Of a DNA stretch of 64,000 nt, positions 47,409 to 50,782 are shown one piece after another. A program made the translations under genes and the position numbers. The stretch lies in contig CAMNXF010000014.1 of assembly GCA_946567425.1 (NCBI GenBank), positions 11,883-75,882 on the forward strand, read 5' to 3'. The stretch's first letter is position 1. Each line of letters starts with the position of its first letter. Below the pieces are notes generated by a model, which ran no database searches, was not told where the DNA came from, and saw only the letters and a list, made by a program, of their open reading frames with translations. This stretch comes from an uncultured Clostridia bacterium. GTDB taxonomy: Bacteria; Bacillota; Clostridia; Oscillospirales; Ruminococcaceae.

Positions 47409-47541
47409 TGCTCCACCTCCGTTACAGACAGCGCTTATCTGTGATTATATTGTAGCATACTTTTTCTTTTCTGTCTTGATTTTTTGAGCATATTTTCGCG
47501 AAAAAAACTCTCCGAAAAACGGGGAGTTTTCGTTTAAATAA

Positions 47542-47898
47542 AGTGACTTTATCGATAAGCCGAGTTCTGTCGTGTATGATCATCTATCTAGCCCCGCCGT
47601 CGCCGACGGGATCAAGCCACCTTTCAACGGGGCGCGCCGAGCAGACGCGTTATCCCCCGCACCAATCGGTGTTGCATCGGATAGGGTTTACATGGCAGTA
47701 CGCTCTCGCGCACTCCGGTGAGCTCTTACCTCGCCTTTCCATCCTTACCGTTTTCCCTTTTCAAGGGTTGCGGCGGTATATCTCTGTTGCACTTGCCCTA
47801 AGGTCGCCCTCGGCTGACGTTATCAGCTACCCTGCTCTGTGATGCTCGGACTTTCCTCATTGCGCTCTCACGCACCGCGATCATATAATAAAGTCACT
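47542..47898 (-). ncRNA. rnpB: RNase P RNA (type A)
   Basis: GAGGAAAGTCC, AGTGCAACAGA, GTAAACCC, ACAGAACTCGGCTTA; P1 AGTGACTTTAT/ATAAAGTCACT. Confidence 0.97.
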
Positions 47899-47998
47899 GT
47901 TAGATTATAGCATATTTTTGCAGAATTGTCAAGAGCGCAGAATTGCAGTTTTTTGCAGCACTCCCCGTGATATTATAAATTCGGAAGGAGGAATGCTT

Positions 47999-48265
47999 AT
48001 GAAGGACTACGGGACTGTTCGTTCGACCGTGCGCCCCGAGACGTTCAGGGTCGACGAGTACAGCGTCTGGAAGTGCTCGGATATACGTGAGGTTTCCGAG
48101 AATGTCGGCGAGGAAAATGAGTTTGTCGGCTGGGAATATGAAATGGCGCGGTACGACAAAAACGAATTCATCAAAATGCAGATATCCGAGAGCGCGGATC
48201 TTTCGGAACAGATAACCAACACGCAGCTTGCCTTGTGCGAGCTTTGCGAAGATATGGAGGTATAA
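47999..48265 (+). CDS. Phage-like hypothetical protein (tail/lysis-region type)
   Basis: AAGGAGG RBS; acidic, ends QITNTQLALCEL.E as in XkdW-like tail-end genes. Confidence 0.6.
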   Translation: MKDYGTVRSTVRPETFRVDEYSVWKCSDIREVSENVGEENEFVGWEYEMARYDKNEFIKMQISESADLSEQITNTQLALCELCEDMEV

Positions 48266-48266
48266 T

Positions 48267-48374
48267 ATGGTAAAGGTTTACGTTAAGCTGATACGCCAAG
48301 GGCTGAAGACCCTTGACAACGTTCCGCCAAAATGGCGCGATAAGGTCGCCCGCGAATTGGAAGCGGGTGATTGA
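48267..48374 (+). CDS. Small phage protein (CD1375/XkdX-like, 35 aa)
   Basis: Hand translation MVKVYVKLIRQGLKTLDNVPPKWRDKVARELEAGD; GGAGG RBS. Confidence 0.75.
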   Translation: MVKVYVKLIRQGLKTLDNVPPKWRDKVARELEAGD

Positions 48375-48376
48375 AT

Positions 48377-48604
48377 ATGGACGTTACGGCAATTATAGTC
48401 GCCGTTCTTTCGCTTATGGGAACGCTCGGCGGATCGCTGGGCGGCATCGTCGTAAGCAGCAAGCTGACGGCGTATCGGATACAGCAGCTCGAGGAAAAGG
48501 TCGCCGAGCACAACAATTTTGCGCGGCGTATGCCCGTTATTGAAGAGCGCATTGAGCAAATGGAAAAGCGTTTTAACAGAATGGAGGAACATAATGAAAA
48601 TTGA
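48377..48604 (+). CDS. Phage lysis-region membrane protein (single TM + coiled coil)
   Basis: MDVTAIIVAVLSL.GT..G, YRIQQLEEKV..HNN..R. Confidence 0.75.
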   Translation: MDVTAIIVAVLSLMGTLGGSLGGIVVSSKLTAYRIQQLEEKVAEHNNFARRMPVIEERIEQMEKRFNRMEEHNEN

Positions 48605-48803
48605 CTGGCAGAGAAAATTGACGAGCCGCAAGCTGTGGGTGAGCGTCGCGGGATTTATCGCGGGAGTTATCGTTCTTGCAAACGGTTCGCAGGAGACCGC
48701 CGATAAAATTTCGGGAGCGATACTCTCGGGAGCGGCGGTCGTCGGCTACGTCCTCGGGGAGGGCTTGGCGGACAGCAATCAGAAGGAGGACGGGGACAGA
48801 TGA
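48594..48803 (+). CDS. Phage holin
   Basis: MKIDWQRKLTSRKLW.SVAGF, two TM segments, Y.LGEGLAD, charged tail. Confidence 0.8.
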   Translation: MKIDWQRKLTSRKLWVSVAGFIAGVIVLANGSQETADKISGAILSGAAVVGYVLGEGLADSNQKEDGDR

Positions 48804-49522
48804 GTATGACATTCAGCGCAATAGCGACTTTTTCGGACTGCTTTAAGCAGAATCGCAAAATGCCCAACGGCTTCCCCGAAGGCATAATCGTTCACTCCAC
48901 GGGCGCGGATAATCCTACGCTAAAGCGTTACGTCAACGCGCCCGACATTTGCGGAGTAAATTCCAATAAAAACTATTTCGGCGGCGAAAACTCAAATGAC
49001 GTAACTCCGCACGGCGTTATCGGAAAGGACAAGGACGGAGCGGTCAGGGCGGCGCAGATACTCCCTTACAATATATGCTGCTGGGGCTGCGGAACGGGAA
49101 AAAACGGCTCGTACAACTACAAGCCCGCATACATTCAGTTTGAGATCGCCGAGGATTCACTGAACGACAAGACGTACTTCGAGCAGGCGTTTGAGCTTAT
49201 GGCAAAGGTATGCGCGGAGCTTATGGAGCAATTCCCGACAATAAGGCTCGAGAATGTGATCTCCCATAAGGAGGCGTGTGCGCGCGGCTACGCGAGCAAT
49301 CACGGCGACCCTGAGAACTGGCTCTCGAAATTCGGCAGGGATATGAACTGGTTTCGTGACAAGGTCAAGGACTACATAAATACCCCGAACGCCGCGCCTG
49401 TTCCCGACGGCACGCTTTACCGCGTGCAGATAGGCGCATTCAGAAGCAGACAGAACGCCGAGAATTATCTCAAGGAAGCAAAGGCAAAGGGCTTTGACGG
49501 ATTTATTGTCAAAGCGGGTTAA
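48800..49522 (+). CDS. N-acetylmuramoyl-L-alanine amidase (Amidase_2) with SPOR domain, endolysin-like
   Basis: IIVHSTG, IQFEIAED, VISHKE..SNHGDP; C-terminal LYRVQIGAFRSRQNAE. Confidence 0.9.
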   Translation: MSMTFSAIATFSDCFKQNRKMPNGFPEGIIVHSTGADNPTLKRYVNAPDICGVNSNKNYFGGENSNDVTPHGVIGKDKDGAVRAAQILPYNICCWGCGTGKNGSYNYKPAYIQFEIAEDSLNDKTYFEQAFELMAKVCAELMEQFPTIRLENVISHKEACARGYASNHGDPENWLSKFGRDMNWFRDKVKDYINTPNAAPVPDGTLYRVQIGAFRSRQNAENYLKEAKAKGFDGFIVKAG

Positions 49523-49525
49523 CAC

Positions 49526-49559
49526 AAAAACAGCCCTTGACCGCGGTCAAGGGCTGTTG
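49526..49559. terminator. Bidirectional terminator
   Basis: AACAGCCCTTGACC-GC-GGTCAAGGGCTGTT. Confidence 0.8.
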
Positions 49560-49638: not shown

Positions 49639-50754
49639 TTAAACTACGCCGCCCTTGTTGATATAAACGGGGAAGTCGGCGGAACCTGTGATCGTGCGGT
49701 TTTTCGTGATAGTAACGTCCTTGTCCGCGATTGCGTTGATGAACGTTGCCTTCTCCTCGATAACCGCGCCCTGCATTACGATACTGTCCTTGATAACCGC
49801 GCCCTTGCCTACCTTAACGCCGCGGAACAGAACGGAGTTCTCGACAATGCCGTCGATAATGCAGCCGTCCGCGATAAGCGATGATTTGACGGAGCAATCA
49901 ATACCGTACTTCGCGGGAGCGACGTCGCGCACCTTGGTGTAGATCGGCGTATCGAGCGAGAATACCTCGCGCGATATTTCGCGGTTCTTCATATCCATAG
50001 TCGCCTTGTAGTAGGTCTTCATTGAGTCGATTATCTCGAAATACTTGTCGTACTTGTAGCCCATTATCTTGAAATCGTGCAGCTTGTGCTGGAGGATATC
50101 CGTTTCAAAGCTGTACAGGCTGCGGCATTCGCTCTCGCGGATAAGACCGTCGAGGAACGCTCTGCGCATAACGTAAACGTTTAGCGCGACGTTCATTTCG
50201 CCGCTGATAGCGGGTCTTGCCAGCACGTCGTAAACAACATTGTCCTCGTTGACGCAGAGAACGGTCTGTGTGAGCGCTCTCTCAACGGAGTAAACTCCGC
50301 TGCCGTAAACGCAGGTGATATCCGCGCCGTTCTTCTCATGGAAGTCAACGATAGGGCGCAAATCCATATTCGCGATAACGTTGCTGTCCGCCATAACGAC
50401 GTATTCCGCGTTGCTCTCGCGGATAAACTCCGCCGAGCCCGCAAGCGCCTCAAGTCTGCCGCGGTAAATACCCGTACCCTCTCTTCCGTAGGGCGGGAGA
50501 ATATGCAGACCGCCCGTCTTTCTCGCAAGATCCCACTCCGAGCCCATGCCGAGGTGGTTCATCAGCGAATAGTAATTCTGTTTAGTGATAATGCCGACCT
50601 GTGTAATGCCCGAGTTTACCATACCCGACAGCGGAAAATCCACCAGACGGTATTTGCTTCCGAACGGAACGCTTGCCATCGCTCTCGCCTTGGTCAATTC
50701 GGGAAGGGTTTGTTCGTGCATATTAGCAAAAATCAAGCCCAGAACTTTAGCCAT
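49639..50754 (-). CDS. glgD: Glucose-1-phosphate adenylyltransferase regulatory subunit
   Basis: SVPFGSKYRLVDFPLS, WDLARK.GGL.ILPP, PIYTKVRD.AP; follows glgC. Confidence 0.93.
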   Translation of the reverse strand: MAKVLGLIFANMHEQTLPELTKARAMASVPFGSKYRLVDFPLSGMVNSGITQVGIITKQNYYSLMNHLGMGSEWDLARKTGGLHILPPYGREGTGIYRGRLEALAGSAEFIRESNAEYVVMADSNVIANMDLRPIVDFHEKNGADITCVYGSGVYSVERALTQTVLCVNEDNVVYDVLARPAISGEMNVALNVYVMRRAFLDGLIRESECRSLYSFETDILQHKLHDFKIMGYKYDKYFEIIDSMKTYYKATMDMKNREISREVFSLDTPIYTKVRDVAPAKYGIDCSVKSSLIADGCIIDGIVENSVLFRGVKVGKGAVIKDSIVMQGAVIEEKATFINAIADKDVTITKNRTITGSADFPVYINKGGVV

Positions 50755-50782
50755 ACTTGCCATATCAAACGATCCTCCTATA

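Follow-up and report, generated by a model that had tools for sequence, protein, structure and literature searches.

A stand-alone phage lysis cassette as the candidate exit module of a dispersed gene transfer agent-like element in an Oscillospiraceae genus

Introduction

What does a complete phage lysis cassette do at a chromosomal site that holds no phage? We addressed this question for a 64,000-nucleotide stretch of DNA from an uncultured Clostridia bacterium (contig CAMNXF010000014.1, positions 11,883 to 75,882; hereafter the window), in which the 1.74-kb gap between rnpB and glgD is occupied by five intact, tightly packed open reading frames (ORFs) on the plus strand that end in a predicted holin and an endolysin. 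An initial annotation of the window had taken this cassette for a domesticated module serving mother-cell lysis, DNA release or programmed lysis. We followed it through the 2.9-Mb genome of the window (G000) and a genus sample of 101 species, labelled with G-numbers (C denotes a contig), which consists of metagenome-assembled genomes of uncultured organisms, recovered from mouse gut and elsewhere under the labels Oscillospiraceae, Ruminococcus or Clostridia. We propose, with a probability of about 0.6, that the cassette is the lysis operon, or 'exit' module, of a dispersed, multi-locus, vertically inherited element resembling a gene transfer agent (GTA) in this Oscillospiraceae genus. The proposal draws on an in silico profile, in which three host-embedded loci are each under selection, share the same unusual promoter and were lost together, and on the precedent of FpGTA, the GTA of Faecalibacterium prausnitzii.

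The cassette is intact and under purifying selection

The cassette is a unit of 1.6 kb with the following features (dN/dS, ratio of nonsynonymous to synonymous divergence).

47944–47958, plus strand: upstream promoter element TGCAGTTTTTTGCAG, a direct repeat TGCAG-N5-TGCAG; invariant in six of six five-gene copies
47968–47976, plus strand: extended −10 element (TGATATTAT), TAnnAT preceded by TG, exactly 12 nt past the upstream element
47999–48265, plus strand: orf1, 88 aa; phrog_18126 (E 5e-33), function unassigned; dN/dS 0.14
48267–48374, plus strand: orf2, 35 aa, XkdX-like; phrog_1382 (E 1e-8); in six of six copies; dN/dS 0.17
48377–48604, plus strand: orf3, 75 aa, N-terminal transmembrane segment and coiled coil; phrog_1863 (E 2e-12); dN/dS 0.09
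48594–48803, plus strand: orf4, 69 aa, predicted holin with two hydrophobic (transmembrane) segments and a charged C terminus; dN/dS 0.10
48800–49522, plus strand: orf5, 240-aa endolysin; Amidase_2 (E 1e-9), SPOR (E 6e-9), phrog_15001 (E 1e-44); dN/dS 0.06
49529–49558, strand-neutral: palindrome and candidate bidirectional terminator, perfect 15+15, between orf5 and glgD

Neighbouring genes abut or overlap by 4–11 nt, which bears out the tight coupling described by the initial annotation. Its start coordinate had to be corrected: position 47918 is a TTG that falls within the promoter of rnpB, which reads in the opposite direction, and the true start of orf1 is the ATG at 47999, which is preceded by GGAAGGAGG and at which the PHROG and orthologue alignments also begin. 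The five ORFs described there are real and intact. The product of orf5 is a predicted N-acetylmuramoyl-L-alanine amidase with a C-terminal SPOR domain that aligns with the repeat of Bacillus subtilis CwlC (PDB 1X60, E 3e-11); we found no signal peptide or N-terminal hydrophobic signal in its sequence, and its combination of a catalytic and a wall-binding domain (Amidase_2 and SPOR) is that of a cytoplasmic endolysin of Firmicutes. The match of orf4 to the holin family phrog_297 is weak (E 1e-3; E 8.5e-6 for a prophage paralogue); orf4 shares 4 nt with orf5 and has the hallmarks of a holin, being a small protein with several transmembrane segments encoded directly upstream of an endolysin.

The three upstream genes are less readily named. 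orf3 occupies the position of a holin accessory gene, like XhlA of PBSX, and phrog_1863 is a family without assigned function; in Pfam, orf3 had only chance coiled-coil matches at E ≤ 1 and none to the XhlA model (PF10779). The label 'XkdX-like' for orf2 is based on size, position and the initial annotation; orf2 matched phrog_1382 and, at E ≤ 1, no Pfam model, XkdX included. Since Pfam has no match for orf1 to orf4, 'XkdX-like' and 'XhlA-like' are descriptors of position and shape. An AlphaFold2 model of orf1 (pLDDT 91) consists of a β-sheet head and a 33-residue helix; it matched no PDB entry at E ≤ 0.001, and its matches in BFVD are uncharacterised phage proteins only. We rejected an assignment of orf1 to XkdW, as this confident model has no counterpart in the PDB at that threshold. 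In prophages, the orf1 family is encoded after the tail-fibre genes.

We found orf1 in 6 of the 101 species, and all six carry the five genes intact and in order. Together with G045 they form a tight subclade (96–97% mutual identity of valyl-tRNA synthetase (ValRS) versus at most 92% to all others), in which the cassette is present in six of seven species and at two or more, probably three, chromosomal sites. The initial annotation had named a full prophage at this site in relatives, or absence of the cassette from them, as the result that would count against domestication. The two closest species, G096 and G009, instead carry the five genes at the same rnpB/glgD site with fully syntenic flanks and no prophage (glgD, glgC and glgB are 96–99.7% identical and syntenic in both). 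The cassettes of G097 and G079 lie between a block of housekeeping genes (encoding TrmK, NIF3, RqcH, ValRS and others up to an HD-domain protein) and an XRE gene; the corresponding valS–HD site of G000 holds no trace of a cassette. In G065, the cassette begins 384 nt from a contig end, so that only its downstream side can be read; an IS200/IS605-type TnpA fragment lies directly behind it (G065:C34; L061:~12100-12330), followed by galactose-utilisation genes, among them a split galT. We rejected the reading of genes upstream of the G097 and G079 cassettes as 'tail genes': the 877-aa protein matching phrog_12710 is ValRS and its neighbours are TrmK, NIF3 and RqcH, which shows that PHROG matches by themselves can mislead.

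Between G000 and G009, dS of the cassette genes (0.40–0.74) is like that of ten flanking host genes (0.48–0.83), and dN/dS is 0.06–0.17 for every cassette gene; against G097 and G079, four of the five genes gave dN/dS of 0.07–0.2. The five genes are intact across all six species at mutual dS of 0.4–2, and the boundaries of the unit are identical at unrelated sites, each copy having its own conserved promoter. We looked for repeats of transposition or att type and for a recombinase at the cassette borders and found none; nor were phage structural genes, an integrase, a capsid or tail gene, flanking repeats or prophage debris present around the cassette in the window. GC content (0.49–0.54) equals that of the flanks. 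The cassette thus shows no pseudogenes, relaxed selection or patchy presence, no integrase or att traces, and no conserved adjacent cargo gene, since the flanks differ among sites. Given dS equal to that of host genes and dN/dS of 0.06–0.17, we conclude that the cassette has been inherited vertically under purifying selection and reflects domestication, not decay. This supports the main inference of the initial annotation.

Two copies differ in detail. In G009, an insert of about 150 bp with a 34-aa ORF separates the holin and endolysin genes (L011:~15146-15300; G009:C29:23146-23299), and the C terminus of the holin differs. In G079, the five-gene cassette and a head–tail cluster stand convergently about 7 kb apart on one contig (G079:C6:113500-127633), an arrangement that may be the ancestral neighbourhood of the two.

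A shared promoter links the cassette to terminase and head–tail genes

Homology among the cassette copies at unrelated sites starts at the 15-mer TGCAGTTTTTTGCAG, and their invariant promoter reads TGCAGTTTTTTGCAG-N12-TAnnAT. The exact 15-mer has three copies in G000, at the cassette, at a portal cluster and at one replication gene of a mobile genetic element (MGE). The relaxed form TGCAG-N5-TGCAG occurs at 12 sites, versus 5 for a reversed-pattern control, and TAnnAT follows at exactly +12 nt in 7 of the 12; the housekeeping form TTGACA-N17-TAnnAT has 299 occurrences in the same genome. Three of these seven promoters belong to the cassette, to a TerS-like/TerL pair (C10) and to the portal-to-tail cluster (C20). 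Of the other four, two precede MGE replication genes (on C12 and, on the minus strand, C2), one diverges from the C2 site and has no clear ORF behind it, and one precedes a radical-SAM gene on C5 (sites G000:C12:8917, C2:11890/11915 as the divergent pair, and C5:14352; the last gene encodes a 613-aa, YgiQ-like protein). A one-mismatch copy of the 15-mer accompanies a DnaD-like replication gene at G000:C9:45274. Across the genus, we detected the motif upstream of the portal gene in 21 of 21 species and upstream of about 24 of 30 TerL loci, and TG-n-TAnnAT is conserved across cassette, portal and TerL promoters. We also considered the DnaD-like gene on C2 of G000 as a regulator and rejected it; it is found in 39 of the 101 species with patchy identity, which makes it an MGE gene.

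The two partner loci in G000 are the following.

G000:C20:31991-37638 (L079): head–tail cluster encoding portal, scaffold, major capsid, two adaptors, p139 and a tail protein (PHROG and Pfam)
G000:C10:18727-20523 (L199/L202): stand-alone TerS-like/TerL pair that immediately follows a motif copy; the 84-aa p84 and a large terminase (Terminase_6N)

The head–tail cluster comprises an SPP1-type portal gene (phrog_533), a major head gene (phrog_422), two head–tail adaptor genes, a phrog_1194 gene and the gene for a 451-aa tail protein, and lies between an RpiR regulator gene and a hydrolase/PhoH/YbeY block in 20 of 20 sampled species. A capsid orthologue (at least 64% identity) is present in 88 of the 101 species, and any match at E ≤ 1e-10 in 94; capsid identity tracks that of ValRS (99, 98, 95, 94, 94 and 89%, then 80–70%). 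The terminase pair is flanked by a CCA-adding enzyme gene and surface-protein genes. TerL orthologues form a class of 66–98% identity, versus about 50% for prophage terminases, and occur in about 86 of the 101 species, always with p84 upstream; p84 itself has no Pfam match, and an extra 255-nt gap separates it from TerL in G000, G096 and G009. All head–tail and TerL genes have dN/dS of 0.02–0.27 with dS like that of host genes, and both loci are intact and syntenic in about 85–90 of the 101 species. Host genes stand on both sides of the C20, C10 and window loci, with no integrase, replication or lysogeny genes. Packaging and head genes are thus conserved, vertically inherited across the lineage and under purifying selection, which is the pattern expected of a GTA.

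The two partner loci tend to disappear jointly: 83 species have both capsid and TerL, 10 have neither and 8 have just one of them (Fisher 4e-8, a value that treats related species as independent and includes several incomplete genomes). In G045, the subclade member without the cassette, rnpB and glgBCD are arranged differently, no TerL orthologue is found, and the head cluster is deleted, with only p60, a fragment of p139 and a degenerate copy of the motif left next to RpiR; this species has thus lost all three loci.

The head–tail locus varies within the genus. In many species, a second gene, for a protein of about 435–470 aa without a Pfam match, follows the gene for the 451-aa tail protein, as in G084 (L121:11134-12453), G003, G014, G015, G053, G057 and G109; it is missing in G085, in G022 and in the G000 subclade, the group that has orf1 and orf2 in its lysis cassette. 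In G088, G101, G049, G089, G021, G061, G099, G080 and G093, the capsid match covers residues 1–246 only and includes an in-frame stop, and a different contig encodes the last 60 residues; in this subclade, the gene may have been interrupted or be in decay. Two elements of a sister genus, L258 (G185:C112) and L259 (G333:C6), carry p84, TerL, portal, capsid and further genes up to p139 and the tail protein in one contiguous block, 47–64% identical and with extra tail genes. These elements appear to display the ancestral, unsplit order, and their block would be a relative of the system that never split or else the kind of phage from which the system arose. Elsewhere, capsid homologues are sporadic across the order; capsid relatives in another family are 35–41% identical, and the cluster in family f13 has a different gene order.

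Motif-driven lysis cassettes occur elsewhere in the genus

The holin family of orf4 is found in 90 of the 101 species, often in several copies and also in prophages, and an endolysin gene lies directly downstream wherever the locus was read. We measured the distance from motif to holin at the best 30 holin loci. At these, the motif lies about 650–690 nt upstream of the holin in the six five-gene cassettes and about 270–400 nt upstream in ten other species, where it directly precedes an orf3-like gene. The latter form a stand-alone, motif-driven three-gene cassette, present in at least ten other species, in which the orf3-like (XhlA-like) gene comes first, followed by the holin and an endolysin of amidase or lysozyme type, often with the same SPOR tail. 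It stands at one conserved host site, beside Rrf2–cysK, in five species and at a different host site in two others. From these motif-driven units at several host sites, we take stand-alone lysis cassettes to be a feature of the genus, exchangeable in both content and position.

The cassette genes derive from phages of the same host group

G000 carries a complete siphovirus-type prophage (G000:C11:~26000-46500; L008, L009) that encodes major head, tape measure and tail proteins and whose right end repeats the gene order of the cassette: a tail protein gene is followed by a phrog_18126 gene (50% identical), an XkdX-like gene, phrog_1863, an extra ORF, a holin gene and the gene for a 492-aa endolysin whose amidase domain is 68% identical to that of orf5. 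On this shared order, we take the cassette to be derived from the tail-end and lysis module of phages of the same host group. A tblastn search with orf1 against the INPHARED phage collection gave no match, and scans of IMG/VR and of genomes with an orf1 alignment returned only phage and prophage copies of about 50% identity, all of which lack the motif upstream. Known phages therefore do not seem to contain the five-gene unit with its promoter. Other phage genes in G000 include an endolysin pseudogene with five stops (G000:C13:15451-15771; L004), a third endolysin gene, intact and 44% identical, whose contig gave a terminase match as well (G000:C28:13987-14652; L003), and paralogues of TerL (51%) and capsid (46%) on the phage-like contig G000:C31.

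The flanks of the cassette in the window

Three features of the opposite strand border the cassette.

47540–47896, minus strand: rnpB (Rfam RF00010, 263 bits), left flank
47932–47904, minus strand: rnpB promoter, a perfect sigma-70 consensus (TTGACA-17-TATAAT with TG)
49639–50763, minus strand: glgD ORF, right flank, followed by glgC and glgB

The terminator noted initially is present as the palindrome at 49529–49558, but the terminator scan assigns it to the minus strand, that of glgD, and its T-run is strong on the minus strand and weak on the plus strand; for the cassette, the terminator is thus at best bidirectional.

Discussion

Several observations weigh against the cassette being part of a GTA-like element. 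The particle system in this genus is a prediction from its genes, and its tail module is minimal, with one or two tail proteins, which makes infective delivery uncertain. Co-loss that involves the cassette itself is a single event (G045). The five-gene form occurs in six species only, and elsewhere in the genus lysis cassettes are tied to the particle loci by the motif only; the motif lies upstream of the holin in 0 of 9 species without the system versus 17 of 37 with it, and in one or two of eight extra control loci, which is suggestive at most. Because the motif also precedes MGE replication-initiator genes, excisionase-like genes and a radical-SAM gene, it may be a general class of MGE and host promoter inherited from phages instead of the mark of a dedicated regulon. 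The G085 genome has an expanded set of about 160 motif copies (83 forward and 77 reverse, none for the control), often in tandem arrays with a 21-bp period, compared with 3–9 copies in other genomes of the genus. Examples of these arrays lie at C2:4437-4592, C78:2095-2151 and C91:108014-108070 of G085, and they could be an expanded family of repeats or binding sites.

These points have to be set beside other explanations. The cassette might be autonomous, with a host function apart from the capsid and terminase loci (mother-cell lysis after sporulation, release of vesicles or extracellular DNA, or release of protein cargo) and a promoter shared only through its generic class. Such a role would suit its purifying selection and stand-alone context; Spo0A is present in the genome, which makes sporulation plausible, the SPOR domain of orf5 resembles the mother-cell lysin CwlC, the motif also drives non-particle genes, and PBSX-type lysis genes reportedly drive the formation of vesicles. 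We nevertheless regard it as unlikely, as the same rare promoter architecture stands at the TerL and portal loci throughout the genus, the neighbouring genes that might be cargo change from site to site, and G045 lost the cassette along with the capsid and TerL loci. The promoter also looks unlike the sigma-E or sigma-K consensus, which argues against a sporulation-linked role. Among the functions suggested by the initial annotation, DNA release comes nearest to our results, and the rare promoter that it has in common with conserved terminase and head–tail loci appears to favour a role in freeing GTA-like particles over one in mother-cell lysis.

A lysis unit that serves resident mobile elements, being activated in trans by prophages, integrative and conjugative elements or satellites with the same promoter code and kept for their benefit, would explain why several genomes have the motif before xis-like genes and genes of MGE replication, why the holin family is common to prophages of the genus and why the site of the cassette differs between species. 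We hold this to be improbable, given that orf1 homologues in phage contigs and the resident prophage have no motif upstream, the divergence of the cassette follows that of the host with host-like dS, its borders show neither repeats nor a recombinase, and the full C11 prophage has lysis genes of its own. That the cassette is the right end of a non-functional prophage that has not yet decayed is largely refuted and very improbable: the gene order of the intact C11 prophage and the decayed endolysin copy on C13 speak for it, but five genes kept intact in six species at the divergence given above (dN/dS 0.06–0.2), identical boundaries at unrelated sites with a conserved promoter at each, and the lack of debris, integrase or att-like repeats at the cassette speak against it.

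We therefore favour the cassette as the lysis operon of a GTA-like element, analogous to operon II of FpGTA. Co-expression is what we infer from the shared promoter, and DNA-filled particles freed by lysis are what we infer from the genes. In this scheme, a putative factor, either a regulator or a sigma factor, would recognise the TGCAG repeats and turn on the three loci in a subpopulation of cells, and the terminase would load DNA into small, short-tailed capsids. The holin, aided by orf3 in the XhlA position, would then permeabilise the membrane, so that the cytoplasmic Amidase_2–SPOR endolysin could cleave peptidoglycan, with the SPOR domain targeting septal or denuded glycan; lysis of the cell would free the particles. 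The products of orf1 and orf2, whose usual place in phages is between tail-fibre and lysis genes, may have been kept as accessory factors for fibre assembly or lysis.

A broader claim can be put forward tentatively, at a little less than even odds: the three loci might together be an undescribed three-locus GTA native to the whole genus (about 100 species) with a dedicated promoter code, TGCAG-N5-TGCAG-N12-TAnnAT. Its lysis module would be the exchangeable, relocating part, as five-gene, three-gene, amidase and lysozyme versions stand at different sites, and the small phrog_18126 and XkdX-like proteins would act without a long tail and would then take part in lysis or in the maturation of fibres. 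Of more interest than the cassette is the wider system of three loci with its promoter signature, and the genus-wide head–tail cluster is a finding by itself. The signature links the dispersed loci and could serve in a search for further parts and for the regulator. The cassette also amounts to a natural experiment, in that it may tell which of the small 'tail-end' genes of phages persist when lysis alone is needed. If functional, the system would give abundant, uncultured anaerobes of the gut a path for gene flow and for programmed lysis.

Comparison with known systems

Hosts also retain holin and endolysin genes of phages apart from any prophage in type 10 secretion (Serratia ChiWXYZ) and in Clostridioides difficile TcdE/TcdL. 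Those genes adjoin their cargo, whereas the window cassette has no neighbour conserved between sites and so does not resemble a type 10 secretion system in this respect. PBSX of B. subtilis, a defective, host-DNA-packaging phage-like element of a Firmicute, offers a closer parallel in gene order: xkdX ... xhlA-xhlB-xlyA corresponds to a small XkdX-type gene, a membrane/coiled-coil accessory gene, a holin gene and an amidase gene. It differs in being one contiguous 28-kb element with a contractile tail; moreover, orf2 and orf3 fall short of the Pfam XkdX and XhlA models, and the orf1 fold has no match to XkdW or any PDB entry.

RcGTA of Rhodobacter capsulatus has a multilocus 'genome' with a separate lysis locus (PMC5026251). 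The loci of RcGTA are co-regulated (GafA/CtrA), and its release needs a holin and an endolysin. As in the system proposed here, head–tail, lysis and accessory genes lie at different chromosomal loci. Both systems are also vertically inherited. RcGTA is alphaproteobacterial and siphovirus-like with a long tail, and the likeness is one of locus layout.

GTAs were long known almost only from Alphaproteobacteria, and FpGTA, published in 2026, is the first case from a gut Firmicute. Its genes for TerS (without a DNA-binding domain), TerL, portal, scaffold and capsid form one operon, and those for fibre/receptor-binding protein (RBP), holin and endolysin stand apart in the 5.5-kb operon II; its particles are about 40 nm across, apparently tail-less, and contain about 8.5 kb of host DNA (PMC12946183, Nat Commun 2026). 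The same study saw GTA-like packaging in Oscillospiraceae, where the responsible loci were not identified, and its authors point out that GTA loci are hard to separate from prophage debris (PMC12946183). The system described here resembles FpGTA in its Gram-positive gut Oscillospirales host, in being split over separate chromosomal operons, in a packaging and head set of TerL, portal, scaffold, capsid and a small TerS-like protein that shows no recognisable DNA-binding domain, in a podovirus-like, short-tail gene content, and in encoding holin and endolysin apart from the head genes. This comparison is one of gene content; in another family of the order, the capsid has relatives of only 35–41% identity. 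The two systems differ in that the genus system has three loci, because TerS and TerL are also separate from the portal, and in that the lysis operon of the window lacks baseplate, fibre and RBP genes and has only two small tail-end genes. For the genus system, a shared promoter motif has been identified, and its loci are a concrete candidate for GTA-like packaging in another lineage of Oscillospirales.

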